Assembly: GCF_041886205.1 (NCBI RefSeq)
Contig: NZ_CP169029.1
Origin: Escherichia coli
Lineage (GTDB): Bacteria > Pseudomonadota > Gammaproteobacteria > Enterobacterales > Enterobacteriaceae
Direction: 5' to 3' (one strand)
Length of the DNA stretch: 64,000 bases
The notes below the pieces were generated by a model that was not told the origin of the DNA, did not search any database, and worked only from the letters and a program-made list of their open reading frames with translations. Numbering within the stretch: position 1 is the first letter of the stretch; the number at the start of each line of letters is the position of its first letter. This document shows, piece by piece, positions 9,199 through 46,112 of this stretch. Made by a program: the position numbers and the translations under genes.

Positions 9199-10389
9199 AT
9201 GAGTGTACGTTTAGTGTTAGCCAAAGGGCGCGAAAAATCATTACTTCGTCGCCATCCGTGGGTCTTTTCCGGGGCCGTTGCCCGCATGGAAGGTAAAGCC
9301 AGCCTCGGTGAAACCATCGATATTGTTGATCATCAGGGAAAATGGTTAGCACGCGGCGCTTATTCGCCAGCTTCGCAAATCCGGGCGCGCGTCTGGACGT
9401 TTGACCCGTCTGAGTCTATCGACATTGCTTTTTTTTCCCGCCGTTTGCAACAGGCACAAAAATGGCGTGACTGGCTGGCGCAAAAAGATGGCCTCGACAG
9501 CTATCGTTTAATCGCCGGAGAATCTGATGGCCTGCCGGGTATTACTATCGATCGTTTCGGTAATTTTCTGGTGCTGCAACTGCTGAGTGCTGGCGCAGAG
9601 TATCAGCGCGCGGCATTAATTAGCGCCCTGCAAACGCTTTACCCGGAATGTGCGATTTACGATCGCAGCGATGTTGCGGTACGTAAAAAAGAAGGGATGG
9701 AGCTGACCCAGGGCCTCGTCACCGGCGAGTTGCCACCTGCCCTGCTGCCGATTGAAGAACACGGCATGAAGCTGCTGGTGGATATTCAGCACGGACACAA
9801 AACGGGCTACTACCTGGACCAGCGAGACAGCCGCCTGGCTACCCGCCGCTACGTTGAAAATAAACGTGTGCTGAACTGTTTCTCCTATACCGGTGGTTTC
9901 TCCGTATCGGCACTGATGGGCGGTTGCAGCCAGGTTGTCAGCGTTGATACCTCCCAGGAAGCGCTGGATATTGCACGGCAGAACGTTGAGCTGAACAAAC
10001 TGGATCTGAGCAAGGCTGAGTTTGTCCGTGATGATGTCTTTAAATTGCTGCGTACTTATCGCGATCGCGGTGAAAAATTTGACGTTATCGTGATGGACCC
10101 GCCGAAGTTTGTTGAGAATAAAAGCCAGTTGATGGGCGCGTGTCGTGGCTATAAAGACATCAACATGCTGGCGATTCAGCTGCTGAATGAAGGCGGTATT
10201 CTCCTGACTTTCTCCTGTTCCGGTCTGATGACCAGCGATTTATTTCAGAAAATCATCGCGGATGCCGCAATTGATGCCGGTCGTGATGTACAATTTATAG
10301 AGCAGTTCCGTCAGGCAGCCGATCATCCGGTGATCGCTACCTACCCGGAAGGGCTATATCTGAAAGGGTTTGCCTGTCGCGTCATGTAA
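9199..10389 (+). CDS. rlmI: 23S rRNA m5C1962 methyltransferase RlmI (396 aa)
   Basis: Track [30 protein letters not shown]... matches RlmI (YccW). Confidence 0.93.
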
Positions 10390-15275: not shown

Positions 15276-17438
15276 ATGGCCTTTATGCTAAGTCCTTTGC
15301 TCAAACGCTATACCTGGAACAGCGCCTGGCTGTATTACGCGCGTATTTTTATTGCGCTTTGTGGAACCACAGCGTTTCCGTGGTGGCTGGGTGATGTAAA
15401 ACTGACGATTCCGCTAACGCTGGGGATGGTGGCAGCGGCGCTGACCGATCTCGATGACCGACTGGCGGGACGTTTGCGTAACCTCATCATTACGCTGTTC
15501 TGCTTTTTTATCGCCTCGGCCTCAGTAGAATTGCTGTTTCCCTGGCCCTGGCTATTTGCGATTGGCTTAACGCTCTCTACCAGCGGCTTCATTTTGCTCG
15601 GCGGTCTGGGTCAACGCTATGCAACAATTGCCTTCGGTGCATTGCTGATCGCCATTTACACTATGTTGGGAACATCACTTTATGAGCACTGGTATCAGCA
15701 GCCGATGTATCTGCTGGCCGGTGCCGTCTGGTACAACGTCCTGACACTTATTGGTCATCTGCTGTTCCCGGTCCGCCCGCTGCAGGACAACCTGGCGCGT
15801 TGCTATGAACAACTGGCGCGTTATCTTGAGCTCAAGTCGCGCATGTTTGATCCTGATATTGAAGATGAAAGCCAGGCACCGCTGTACGATTTGGCTCTCG
15901 CCAACGGACAGCTGATGGCGACATTGAATCAGACGAAACTCTCGCTGCTGACCCGCTTACGTGGCGATCGTGGTCAACGGGGAACGCGTCGCACGCTGCA
16001 TTATTACTTTGTCGCGCAGGATATTCACGAGCGTGCCAGCTCTTCTCATATTCAGTATCAAACATTGCGTGAACATTTTCGCCACAGCGACGTGCTGTTC
16101 CGTTTTCAGCGGCTGATGTCGATGCAGGGCCAGGCGTGCCAGCAACTGTCACGCTGTATTTTGCTGCGTCAGCCTTATCAACATGATCCGCATTTTGAGC
16201 GCGCTTTTACGCATATTGATGCTGCCCTGGAGCGGATGCGCGATAACGGCGCGCCTGCCGATTTACTCAAAACACTAGGATTTTTGCTGAACAATTTACG
16301 CGCCATTGATGCCCAACTGGCAACAATTGAATCAGAACAGGCCCAGGCACTACCCCATAATAATGACGAAAATGAGCTCGCTGATGACAGCCCGCACGGA
16401 TTGAGTGATATCTGGCTGCGTCTTAGCCGTCACTTCACGCCGGAGTCCGCCCTCTTCCGTCATGCGGTTAGAATGTCGCTGGTGTTGTGTTTCGGCTACG
16501 CCATCATTCAGATAACCGGAATGCATCACGGGTATTGGATCTTGCTGACAAGTTTGTTTGTCTGCCAGCCAAACTATAACGCCACGCGCCACCGCCTGAA
16601 GTTAAGGATTATTGGTACGCTGGTAGGTATCGCCATTGGCATTCCTGTGCTGTGGTTTGTACCGTCACTGGAAGGGCAGCTGGTGCTACTGGTTATTACC
16701 GGCGTGCTCTTTTTTGCCTTCCGTAACGTGCAATATGCCCATGCAACGATGTTCATCACACTTTTGGTGCTACTGTGTTTTAACTTGCTGGGTGAAGGTT
16801 TTGAAGTAGCGTTACCTCGCGTAATCGATACGCTGATTGGTTGTGCCATTGCGTGGGCGGCAGTGAGCTACATCTGGCCTGACTGGCGGTTTCGCAATCT
16901 GCCGCGCATGCTCGAACGCGCCACCGAGGCCAACTGTCGGTATCTCGATGCCATACTGGAGCAATACCATCAGGGGCGTGATAACCGTCTGGCGTATCGT
17001 ATTGCCCGCCGCGATGCACACAACCGTGATGCTGAGCTGGCGTCGGTGGTATCAAACATGTCCAGCGAACCGAACGTTACCCCGCAAATTCGAGAGGCCG
17101 CGTTTCGGTTACTGTGCCTTAACCATACGTTTACCAGCTATATCTCAGCCCTCGGTGCTCACCGGGAGCAGTTAACTAATCCTGAAATTCTGGCGTTTCT
17201 TGATGACGCAGTTTGCTATGTTGATGACGCGTTACATCATCAACCTGCTGATGAAAAACGCGTCAATCAGGCATTAGCTGGCCTGAAACAGCGGATGCAG
17301 CAACTTGAACCACGGGCAGACAGCAAAGAACCTCTGGTCGTACAACAAGTTGGGTTATTGATTGCATTACTGCCTGAGATTGGTCGTCTGCAACGCCAGA
17401 TTACTCAAGTTCCGCAGGAAACTCCTGTTTCGGCGTAA
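15276..17438 (+). CDS. yccS: Inner membrane protein YccS (FUSC-like, about 717-720 aa); alternative start at 15285
   Basis: Track ORF MAFMLSPLLKRYTWNSAWLYYARIF...; I recall the reference product starting MLSPLL (ATG 15285). Begins 10 nt after the yccF stop, so likely co-transcribed. Confidence 0.88.
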   Translation: MAFMLSPLLKRYTWNSAWLYYARIFIALCGTTAFPWWLGDVKLTIPLTLGMVAAALTDLDDRLAGRLRNLIITLFCFFIASASVELLFPWPWLFAIGLTLSTSGFILLGGLGQRYATIAFGALLIAIYTMLGTSLYEHWYQQPMYLLAGAVWYNVLTLIGHLLFPVRPLQDNLARCYEQLARYLELKSRMFDPDIEDESQAPLYDLALANGQLMATLNQTKLSLLTRLRGDRGQRGTRRTLHYYFVAQDIHERASSSHIQYQTLREHFRHSDVLFRFQRLMSMQGQACQQLSRCILLRQPYQHDPHFERAFTHIDAALERMRDNGAPADLLKTLGFLLNNLRAIDAQLATIESEQAQALPHNNDENELADDSPHGLSDIWLRLSRHFTPESALFRHAVRMSLVLCFGYAIIQITGMHHGYWILLTSLFVCQPNYNATRHRLKLRIIGTLVGIAIGIPVLWFVPSLEGQLVLLVITGVLFFAFRNVQYAHATMFITLLVLLCFNLLGEGFEVALPRVIDTLIGCAIAWAAVSYIWPDWRFRNLPRMLERATEANCRYLDAILEQYHQGRDNRLAYRIARRDAHNRDAELASVVSNMSSEPNVTPQIREAAFRLLCLNHTFTSYISALGAHREQLTNPEILAFLDDAVCYVDDALHHQPADEKRVNQALAGLKQRMQQLEPRADSKEPLVVQQVGLLIALLPEIGRLQRQITQVPQETPVSA

Positions 17439-18030
17439 GAGAGTCAGCCCATTCTGCTAGCTCCTGGCGGCGTGCCACCGGGAGCGCAGCTTCATGAATC
17501 CCGATAATGGCACCTTCAAGCATAAACAGAATCTTTTCTGTCACCAGACTGTTTTGCTGCCGCAGTCGCAACCAACACATTTTTGCCCCAAGTATACGTA
17601 ACGCCCGTACATCCTTAATCCCCACCTCCCCGAGAATCGCTTCCAGATGAAAAGACATATTGGGCAAATCTTTCAGTCTTTCCCGGGTATTGCGCGTGCT
17701 TTTCTCTTTCAGCGCTGCATCGAGAGAATATTTCGACAGACGCACCAGCTTCAGTTGATTTCGCCATAGACTTTCATCAACCCGATAGTAATTGAGGGTA
17801 ACGGATCGGCCACACTTTTTATATGTCAGCCAGACAGGCGGATGTTTTACACAGTACTGTGCACTTTGCTCACAAGCCCGAAGATACAACTCACCATCAG
17901 AAACCATCGCAAACACCGTGTCGTCAACGGTCAGGCTGTAACTACCAAACAATGATCGGTATTCAATTGTGCCCAACGTTGCCAGGTATTCTTGTGATTT
18001 ATAGATCCGCTTATAGGAGAGGTTTTTCAT
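17401..18030 (-). CDS. sxy: Competence regulator Sxy/TfoX (209 aa)
   Basis: Track ORF MKNLSYKRIYKSQEYLATLGTIEYRSLFGSYSLTVDD... matches Sxy; 3' end overlaps the yccS 3' end by 38 nt. Confidence 0.92.
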   Translation of the reverse strand: MKNLSYKRIYKSQEYLATLGTIEYRSLFGSYSLTVDDTVFAMVSDGELYLRACEQSAQYCVKHPPVWLTYKKCGRSVTLNYYRVDESLWRNQLKLVRLSKYSLDAALKEKSTRNTRERLKDLPNMSFHLEAILGEVGIKDVRALRILGAKMCWLRLRQQNSLVTEKILFMLEGAIIGIHEAALPVARRQELAEWADSLTPKQEFPAELE

Positions 18031-22709: not shown

Positions 22710-23228
22710 ATGGTAGATAAACGCGAATCCTATACAAAAGAAGACCTTCTTGCCTCTGGTCGCGGTGAACTGTTTGGCGCTAAAGGCCCGCAATTGCCAG
22801 CACCGAATATGCTGATGATGGACCGTGTGGTCAAAATGACCGAAACGGGTGGTAACTTCGACAAAGGGTATGTTGAAGCAGAACTGGATATCAATCCGGA
22901 TCTGTGGTTCTTCGGATGCCACTTCATTGGCGATCCGGTTATGCCGGGATGCCTGGGCCTGGACGCAATGTGGCAGCTGGTAGGGTTCTACCTCGGCTGG
23001 CTGGGCGGCGAAGGTAAAGGCCGCGCGCTGGGCGTTGGCGAAGTGAAATTCACTGGTCAGGTACTGCCGACAGCGAAAAAAGTGACCTACCGTATTCACT
23101 TTAAACGCATTGTTAATCGTCGTCTGATTATGGGTCTGGCAGATGGCGAAGTGCTGGTTGATGGTCGTCTGATCTATACCGCCAGCGACCTGAAAGTCGG
23201 TCTGTTCCAGGATACGTCTGCCTTCTGA
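22710..23228 (+). CDS. fabA: 3-hydroxydecanoyl-ACP dehydratase/isomerase FabA (172 aa)
   Basis: Track ORF 22512..23228; the known product starts at [30 protein letters not shown] (ATG at 22710). Confidence 0.95.
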
Positions 23229-23249
23229 TTATAATCAGACAGAGTATCA

Positions 23250-23286
23250 AAAGGCGAAACCTCCGCAATGCGGAGGTTTCTTTTTA
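23250..23286. terminator. Bidirectional intrinsic terminator between convergent fabA and rmf
   Basis: Stem AAACCTCCG-CAATG-CGGAGGTTT with T-tract downstream and A-tract upstream. Confidence 0.85.
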
Positions 23287-23297
23287 AAGAGACAGAA

Positions 23298-23465
23298 TCA
23301 GGCCATTACTACCCTGTCCGCCATGGCTTCTCGCCAGCCTCCCAGCCATTGTGACCTTTGATTCAGCGTCTGATAGGGACACATTTCTTTTGAGCGTCCG
23401 GCGATGCCGGCCTGATAACCACGTTGATGTGCCCGTTCCAGGCGATCTCGTTTTTGTCTCTTCAT
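23298..23465 (-). CDS. rmf: Ribosome modulation factor Rmf (55 aa)
   Basis: Reverse translation from ATG at 23465 gives MKRQKRDRLERAHQRGYQAGIAG...; below the 60-aa track cutoff. The track ORF 23284..23481 is in a different frame. Confidence 0.9.
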   Translation of the reverse strand: MKRQKRDRLERAHQRGYQAGIAGRSKEMCPYQTLNQRSQWLGGWREAMADRVVMA

Positions 23466-23720
23466 GCCTCGTTTCCCTCATACTGGTTTCTGGTGGAAAA
23501 GAAAACAGTGATTACTAAATGTGCAATCACAGTTAAGCAATACCCCGAATCATAACTGCCGTCAATGCGCAAAATTCACGCCACTGTCATATTTGTGAGC
23601 TACACGGGCATGTCAGTTGTACAAAAAATGTGAAGAGGAACAACTTTTTCCGCACGTTAGAAACAAAAAAACCGCCTCAGGCAACATACCGGAGACGGTT
23701 ATATTTACAAATCTTTATAA

Positions 23721-24284
23721 TTAAGGTAGACGCTTTATCTCTTGTGCAATGGAAGCGGCTTCCTGACTCCAGACACTGGCCAGCACTTTGACCATCTCAT
23801 CGTAACCATCCTGCGTTTGCACCCCTTCCAGACGGAACGGACGTTTGATCAGTTGTCCCTGGTGGTTCAACAGCCACTCCCCACTGACAATGACCTTGCC
23901 ATCATAGCGACCGTTAAACTCCGTTACGGTAACATTGAGCGTGTCCTGGGCGCTTCCCAGAGGCTGGGAGGCAACCACCCAGCCGGGCAGTTGCGTGCTC
24001 AGGTTGGCAACCAGGGTGTTGCGCAACTGTTGATCCAATGGGCTGGCCCACAAGTTGTTGTTGGCAATCACATACTTCACATCACTGGTTTGATAAACCA
24101 CACCATTCCCCGCCAGATAGTCAGGAACAGTGACCTGCTCTACCCATAACAGGCGATTACCCTGGCTGGCGGTACTTTGTGTACCGCTCTGCACCACAGG
24201 TAACTGGTAATAGTTTTTATTAATTTCGCCGGAGCTGCATCCGGCCAGCCACAGTGCTGCAATCGTCACTAGCCACTTTTTCAT
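23721..24284 (-). CDS. pqiC: Paraquat-inducible lipoprotein PqiC (YmbA), 187 aa
   Basis: Track ORF MKKWLVTIAALWLAGCSSGEINKNYYQ... with a lipobox LAGC. Confidence 0.9.
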   Translation of the reverse strand: MKKWLVTIAALWLAGCSSGEINKNYYQLPVVQSGTQSTASQGNRLLWVEQVTVPDYLAGNGVVYQTSDVKYVIANNNLWASPLDQQLRNTLVANLSTQLPGWVVASQPLGSAQDTLNVTVTEFNGRYDGKVIVSGEWLLNHQGQLIKRPFRLEGVQTQDGYDEMVKVLASVWSQEAASIAQEIKRLP

Positions 24285-33401: not shown

Positions 33402-34412
33402 TTAGATATGGGTAACGATTTCTTTAATCAGCGGCGGACCTTTAAAAATAAAACCAGAATAAATTTGCACCAGTGAGGCACCCGCAGCAATCTTTTCACG
33501 CGCAGCGATAACCGAGTCGATGCCGCCAACCCCGATGATCGGTAAGCGACCGTTTAATTCCAGTGACAAGCGGCGAATAATTTCGGTGCTTTTTAACTGA
33601 AGCGGACGACCACTTAAGCCACCGGTTTGATCGCAATTTTTCATTCCCTGAACCAGAGAACGATCGAGTGTGGTATTGGTTGCAATAACGCCATCAATAT
33701 TATGGCGAACTAAACTATCGGCAACCTGGATCAATTCGTCTTCAGAAAGATCCGGCGCGATCTTCACTGCGATCGGCACATATTTATGGTGCATCGCTTG
33801 CAAATCATTTTGCTTATTTTTAATCGCGGTTAAGAGATCATCCAGCGCTTCACCATATTGCAGCGTGCGTAATCCTGGGGTATTCGGCGATGAAATATTG
33901 ATGGCGATATATCCCGCATAGGCATAGATTTTTTCCATACAAATCAGATAGTCATCTTTTCCCTGCTCCACTGGCGTATCTTTATTTTTGCCGATATTAA
34001 TACCCAGGACGCCGTCATAATGGGCCTTTTTTACGTTCTCTACGAGGTTATCAACGCCAAGATTATTAAAGCCCATACGGTTGATCAAACCTTCGGCATC
34101 TACCAGACGAAAGAGACGCGGCTTGTCATTACCTGGCTGTGGACGTGGCGTGACGGTACCGATCTCGATCGATCCAAATCCCATCGCGCCTAACGCATCA
34201 ATGCACTCCCCGTCTTTATCAAGACCGGCTGCCAGACCAAGCGGATTTTTAAACGTCAGGCCCATGCAGTTAACAGGTTTCGCAGGCACTTTCTGCCGCA
34301 CCAGTGCTTCAAACGGCGTTCCAGTAATGCGGCGTAATTGCTGAAAAGTAAACTCATGAGCGCGCTCTGGATCGAGCTGGAAAAGGGCTTTACGAACGAA
34401 GGGGTAGTACAT
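33402..34412 (-). CDS. pyrD: Dihydroorotate dehydrogenase (quinone), PyrD (336 aa)
   Basis: Track ORF 33402..34439; the known product starts at [28 protein letters not shown] (ATG at 34412). Confidence 0.95.
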
Positions 34413-34498
34413 GAACTCTCCTGGATTCCCGGTGTGCAAACCGGGGGCGTATTATGTGCGAGTTCGGACCAAAAGGGAATTGACCTGCGGCAAAAAAA

Positions 34499-45909: not shown

Positions 45910-46100
45910 TGCCGGATGTGCCGCACAAAACCAGCAGTTTCAACGGATTGTAGGCCTGATAAGACGCGTCAAGCGTCGCATCAGGCATTTGGGCACGGCT
46001 GCCGGATGCGGCGTGAACGCCTTATCCAGCCTACAAAACCAGCATTTTCAACGGACTTGTAGGCCTGATAAGACGCGTCAAGCGTCGCATCCGGCATTTT
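45910..46100. repeat. REP/BIME cluster: two ~66-nt direct repeats (45927..45992 and 46035..46100) with an inverted REP-like copy between them
   Basis: Repeated motif TGTAGGCCTGATAAGACGCGTCAAGCGTCGCATC(A/C)GGCA and inverted GCCGGATGCGGCGTGAACGCCTTATCCAGCCTACA, the canonical E. coli REP palindrome family, between convergent ssuB and pepN. Confidence 0.9.
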
Positions 46101-46112
46101 GGCTCAAAAGTA

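Follow-up and report, generated by a model that had tools for sequence, protein, structure and literature searches.

Identification of rmf, the ribosome modulation factor gene, beneath a longer overlapping open reading frame in an Escherichia coli chromosome, with a covarying hairpin at the start of its leader

Introduction

The overall question raised by this locus is which of two overlapping reading frames on the minus strand between fabA and pqiC is a gene. The DNA analyzed, referred to here as the window, is a 64,000-nucleotide stretch of an E. coli chromosome (contig NZ_CP169029.1, assembly GCF_041886205.1). A program-made list of its open reading frames shows a single 65-codon frame at this place. 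A preliminary description made from the sequence held that this frame is spurious, and that the true gene is rmf, which encodes the 55-residue ribosome modulation factor (RMF) in a different frame and was missed by the list. The two frames are as follows.

23298..23465, minus strand: rmf coding sequence, 55 codons, TGA stop at 23300..23298 (from translation, PDB, Pfam/NCBIfam and RefSeq coordinates)
23284..23481, minus strand: 65-aa open reading frame, judged not to be a gene; overlaps rmf in another frame, has no family hit and is unannotated

Results

The 55-codon frame encodes RMF

Direct translation of 23465..23298 on the minus strand gave MKRQKRDRLERAHQRGYQAGIAGRSKEMCPYQTLNQRSQWLGGWREAMADRVVMA, 55 codons followed by TGA. 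The preliminary description had stated that the minus strand encodes Rmf from the ATG at 23465, and our translation agreed with the one quoted there letter for letter. It had also proposed comparing the translation with Rmf. In this comparison the product was identical at 55/55 residues to E. coli RMF, as represented by the chains in PDB entries 6H4N, 6H58, 9IOT and 4V8G. The first three of these are structures of the E. coli 100S (hibernating) ribosome, and RMF is chain v in 6H4N.

Profile searches gave the same identification. The product matched the Pfam RMF family PF04957 at 79.6 bits (1.7e-22; cut-off 27.9) over profile positions 1-52 of 53, and the NCBIfam equivalog NF011162 at 92.1 bits (cut-off 40). 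It also matched the 65-residue RMF chain of PDB 2JRM at 4e-19. RMF proteins from other gammaproteobacteria (the 2JRM chain and those of Klebsiella, Yersinia, Proteus and Aeromonas) share the MKRQKRDRL N-terminus, the W-L-G-G-W motif and a length of 52-60 aa. These orthologues are 67-91% identical to E. coli RMF in amino-acid sequence, and differ from it in the length and sequence of the C-terminal tail. Two further families, Rmf_like_phage (NF041887) and CrpP_fam (NF033696), had weak similarity to RMF residues ~10-48, and both scored below their curated cut-offs (24.1 against 40, and 19.8 against 55, respectively). The window protein is a bona fide RMF equivalog, not a CrpP or a phage Rmf-like protein.

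The genomic context is that of E. coli rmf

The window corresponds to the appC-to-mukF region of the E. coli chromosome, and a blastn alignment with the closest strain, LHM10-1 (NZ_CP037903.1), gave 99.88% identity across 50 kb with 2 gaps. The LHM10-1 RefSeq rmf, WP_000828648.1, maps to window positions 23298..23465, and K-12 MG1655 has the same protein accession. The gene is flanked by pqiC (23721..24284, minus strand) and the convergent fabA (22710..23228, plus strand), which is the enterobacterial context of RMF genes (pqiABC, rmf, convergent fabA). The order pqiC-rmf-fabA is kept in Klebsiella; in Yersinia pqiC-rmf is kept and fabF takes the place of fabA downstream. The 2-kb surroundings of rmf are present in 5,425 of 5,426 complete E. 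coli genomes, and rmf is annotated at this region in the E. coli genomes among the matches listed.

Elsewhere in the window, rlmI (396 aa, 9199-10389) and sxy (209 aa, 17401-18030) are intact; LHM10-1 has an internal stop in rlmI and a frameshift in sxy, so the window must come from another strain.

The K-12 gene (b0953) has an identical 55-aa protein, an identical coding sequence and identical leader DNA, and the neighbors pqiC and fabA are also the same. On the combined evidence we regard it as practically certain that 23465..23298 on the minus strand is E. coli chromosomal rmf, encoding the 55-residue ribosome modulation factor. The gene is a textbook one, and this identification, now confirmed, is correct but ordinary.

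A length threshold hides rmf from the list

The open reading frame list uses a default cut-off of 60 aa. With this minimum, the sole frame reported in 23240-23720 was the 65-aa ORF. With a minimum of 20 aa, both the 55-aa and the 65-aa ORF appeared. Rmf is absent from the list because the length threshold drops everything shorter than 60 aa, and the start codons of the two ORFs are 16 nt apart, which places them in different frames. The statement that rmf was missed therefore holds at the 60-aa cut-off, but the list made no error of frame: by mechanical rules the 65-aa ORF is a true open reading frame, although it is not a gene.

The 65-codon frame resembles a non-coding frame

The possibility that 23284..23481 is itself translated as a gene, besides the overlapping rmf or instead of it, deserves attention on several counts. 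The frame is intact, starts with ATG and is longer than rmf. It is also intact in K-12, in K. pneumoniae and in 13 of 96 species, and it appears as a protein entry in GenBank on 3-4 contigs, in one case named 'ribosome modulation factor'. Against this, its product had no match in Pfam or NCBIfam, and it has no RefSeq annotation in LHM10-1 or K-12. The 20 nt that precede its ATG lack any SD-like sequence, and the ATG itself overlaps the distal Shine-Dalgarno sequence of rmf (SD1, described below).

We compared the frames across rmf loci from other genomes. Five loci came from chromosomes mis-filed in a plasmid collection, and 120 further loci from one DNA-pattern scan of a species-representative genome set; of these, the 96 gammaproteobacterial loci with enough flanking sequence and an RMF-like product were kept. 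The RMF frame was open in all 96, with products of 52-60 aa. Mean column entropy at codon positions 1, 2 and 3 of this frame was 0.57, 0.34 and 1.38 bits (93 ungapped sequences). Because entropy was highest at the third codon position, we conclude that the RMF frame is under purifying selection, as expected for a small basic protein of ~55 aa that belongs to this family. The 65-aa frame had at least one stop inside the span of the coding sequence in 76 of the 96 loci. In-frame stops were also seen in K. aerogenes and P. mirabilis. A start at the equivalent position followed by at least 60 open codons was found in only 13.

Amino-acid identity to E. coli separated the frames further. For the same five pairs of sequences, identity was

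0.94, 0.94, 0.78, 0.71 and 0.71 in the RMF frame
0.74, 0.66, 0.46, 0.40 and 0.38 in the 65-aa frame
0.72, 0.70, 0.44, 0.38 and 0.36 in the third, non-coding frame, used as a control

Identity in the 65-aa frame was indistinguishable from that in the control frame, so neither an open frame across relatives nor conservation above the control, as looked for in a protein-coding gene, was found. The ATG of the 65-aa ORF does persist in relatives (as A/GTGAGGG), because it lies within the SD1 region of rmf. Given the stops, the control-level identity and the lack of an SD-like sequence, the 65-aa ORF is a chance open frame, which upholds the preliminary description on this point. We consider a translated gene in this frame extremely improbable.

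An exact look-up in public databases assigned the 65-aa sequence to a 4-member cluster and located identical copies on 3 contigs; the same look-up found the true RMF sequence on at least 1000 contigs. The deposited wrong-frame proteins are ACT70914.1, EFJ93212.1 and EFU50567.1. The first of these, from E. coli O157:H7 TW14359, carries the name 'ribosome modulation factor' on the wrong-frame product. The existence of these deposits means that the warning in the preliminary description matches an annotation error that really occurred. In the plasmid collection (PLSDB), the 'plasmids' CP125156.1, NZ_OL790811.1 and NZ_AP026896.1 are 4-5 Mb long and contain chromosomal genes, pqiBC-rmf-fabA among them; these records look like chromosomes mislabelled as plasmids.

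A covarying hairpin begins the rmf leader

The features upstream and downstream of the coding sequence are listed from upstream to downstream of rmf.

23671..23685, minus strand: terminator-like hairpin and T-run just after the pqiC stop (pqiC ends at 23721), from a terminator scan
23537..23565, minus strand: putative sigma-70 promoter, -35 TTGACG at 23565..23560, 17-nt spacer, -10 TATTGC at 23542..23537
23530, minus strand: transcription start (G), 65 nt upstream of the ATG, mapped from the position in PMC3415461
23508..23530, minus strand: 5'-terminal leader hairpin, GUGAUUGC, 7-nt loop, GUAAUCAC (from covariation)
23498..23506, minus strand: U-rich tract GUUUUCUUU, predicted to pair with SD1 in the minimum-free-energy fold
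23475..23479, minus strand: SD1 (GAGGG), distal Shine-Dalgarno sequence of rmf, overlapping the ATG (23481..23479) of the 65-aa ORF (from sequence)
23467..23470, minus strand: SD2 (GAGG), proximal SD-like sequence one base before the rmf ATG (from sequence and PMC7177335)
23246..23280, both strands: bidirectional intrinsic terminator of rmf and fabA, 11-bp stem at 23256..23280 with T-runs on both strands (from the scan)

The hairpin is an inverted repeat, GTGATTGC-N7-GTAATCAC, that runs from 23530 to 23508 and has an 8-bp stem. We measured covariation in 33 distinct Enterobacterales leaders. Compensatory changes on both sides of the stem occurred in 4 of the 8 pairs (23 cells), and one pair was G-U in 24 sequences and G-C in 8. 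Overall, 92% of the cells were paired, compared to 40-72% when the 3' partner was slid, and the covariation score was reached by no shuffle. RNAalifold recovered the hairpin independently, and the terminator scan marked it as terminator-like. Hairpin-plus-U-run shapes were visible by eye at the same place in Aeromonas, Zobellella, Shewanella and Pantoea. The covariation in the Enterobacterales leaders shows that the hairpin is a structure at the level of the RNA.

The rmf leader had no match to an Rfam family, either in a local scan at E<=1 or at the gathering score across the window. Pseudomonas reportedly has an 'rmf' RNA motif in Rfam, said to have been described by Weinberg et al. in 2010 as a cis-regulatory candidate upstream of rmf. 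In Pseudomonas as in Enterobacterales, the 5' leader of rmf would contain a conserved RNA structure, but that of Enterobacterales is a hairpin with just a simple 8-bp stem, located at the 5' end, and the E. coli leader does not match the Pseudomonas motif in Rfam. The local scan gave only three Rfam 'leader' hits, all below threshold (21-25 versus 50-55 bits) and over the rmf/fabA terminator hairpin, which were set aside as generic resemblance to a terminator.

Rfam matches were also seen at other places in the window. The PyrD leader was found at 34407-34480 on the minus strand, upstream of pyrD (97.9 bits), as expected for E. coli. The ssuB-pepN spacer (45925-46103) contains two direct copies of ~70 nt, 108-109 nt apart, that overlap a match to naRNA4, a REP-derived nucleoid-associated RNA, at 45953-46031 on the minus strand (82 bits).

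The hairpin favors one of two published transcription starts

The two published positions of the rmf transcription start disagree. Kim et al. 2012 (PMC3415461, supplementary file 2) list a start at NC_000913.2 position 1014873 on the plus strand, with 493 reads and a 5'UTR of 65. This position maps to 23530 in the window, which is the first base of the hairpin. In PMC6134199, rmf transcription starts 58 nt upstream of the initiation codon (~23523), and a transcript with that end would lose the 5' arm of the hairpin. The start at -65 is favored over that at -58 because the covarying hairpin begins at -65.

The putative promoter was placed by the published -65 start together with conservation of its TTGAC and (G)TAT elements in the species alignment, and not by a match to consensus. 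A scan of 23150-23800 with the sigma-70 consensus reported no promoter, since the -10 element is a poor consensus match.

At the rmf locus the window differs from K-12 at four SNPs only (23662, 23644, 23615 and 23545). All are upstream of the transcription start, within the 255-nt pqiC-rmf spacer. At 23545, in the spacer of the putative rmf promoter between the -35 and the -10, the window has G and K-12 has C. Such differences raise the question of whether rmf could be present and yet silent or defective in this strain through changes in its regulatory region. K-12 and the window nevertheless agree at every base of the rmf coding sequence, the 65-nt leader, the two promoter hexamers and the terminator. 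Over the 2-kb region, six E. coli genomes among the matches listed are 100% identical to the window and 1,516 records reach 99% identity or more, and the sequence of the pqiC-rmf spacer is not conserved between species anyway. A silent or defective rmf is therefore a reading to which we give almost no weight.

The terminator-like hairpin at 23671..23685 separates pqiABC from rmf. At the other end, the stem of the terminator between rmf and fabA is G+C-rich, and compensatory changes preserve it in K. aerogenes and K. pneumoniae.

Translation signals and regulatory sites

Two candidate Shine-Dalgarno sequences of rmf have been described, SD1 at the distant position of 11 nt and SD2 at 2 nt upstream of the AUG, and this arrangement puts rmf in the polyamine modulon (PMC7177335). 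The GAGG of SD1 was invariant in the 33 Enterobacterales leaders. Pairing between SD1 and the U-rich tract is predicted by the minimum-free-energy fold, but RNAalifold prefers a shifted register. Both elements are nearly invariant across the 33 leaders, and there was no covariation either way.

Control by CsrA through SD1, which contains GGA, was considered and dropped: PMC10746276 reports no CsrA effect on an rmf leader fusion, and CsrA regulation would therefore be transcriptional and indirect. The literature places rmf transcription under many factors, with an indirect effect of CsrA (PMC10746276, PMC6134199). No CRP box (TGTGA-N6-TCACA, up to 2 mismatches) was found in the upstream region of rmf. 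The nearest match, at 23224-23239, falls within the 3' end of fabA, on the far side of the shared terminator, and there were 21 matches in the window compared to 27 expected by chance.

Discussion

These observations describe the rmf gene as a monocistronic unit with a putative weak sigma-70 promoter. Its 65-nt leader presents the conserved hairpin first, then the unusually distant SD1 and, beside the AUG, a second SD-like site. Transcription ends at the terminator common to rmf and the convergent fabA. The function of the product is known from work on the identical protein. RMF is made and accumulates on entry into stationary phase, and its binding site on the 30S subunit lies close to the anti-Shine-Dalgarno end of 16S rRNA, where the helix between the SD and the anti-SD forms. 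RMF makes 70S ribosomes pair up as a 90S dimer, which HPF matures to the translationally silent 100S 'hibernating' ribosome (PMC10746276, PMC6134199). As 30S binding and 70S dimerization are established in the literature for the identical protein, the RMF encoded here would be expected to do the same.

The role of the leader hairpin can be considered in several ways. We think it possible, if rather doubtful, that the covarying hairpin and the U-run together make up a functional RNA element that is uncatalogued; in that case the commonly quoted -58 start would reflect either processing of the transcript or an artefact. Stem-loops placed right at the 5' end of an mRNA are a classical guard against 5'-end-dependent decay, as in the work on the ompA 5'-UTR. 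The half-life of rmf mRNA in stationary phase is reportedly very long, a finding attributed to Aiso et al. in 2005. It is conceivable that the rmf hairpin is a 5' stem-loop of this kind, which blocks such decay and sets the long half-life of the message, and protection by the hairpin would fit that half-life. It is also conceivable that the hairpin is instead part of a promoter-proximal attenuator, in which the U-tract would switch between a terminator and the masking of SD1.

Only a few parts of this work are mildly new: the documentation that the wrong-frame ORF was annotated as RMF in GenBank, the quantified covariation of the leader hairpin, and the agreement of the hairpin with the -65 start.

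The preliminary description had also concluded that short genes in the window need manual inspection. Rmf is one such case, but the generalization has a single-case basis, since the corresponding 64 kb of the closest reference genome have no annotated coding sequence shorter than 60 aa other than rmf. The locus can serve as a calibration point: a 60-aa cut-off hides a highly conserved real gene and shows a longer chance ORF in its place. For the biology of rmf, the leader hairpin and the choice between the -65 and -58 starts may help studies of the stability of rmf mRNA.
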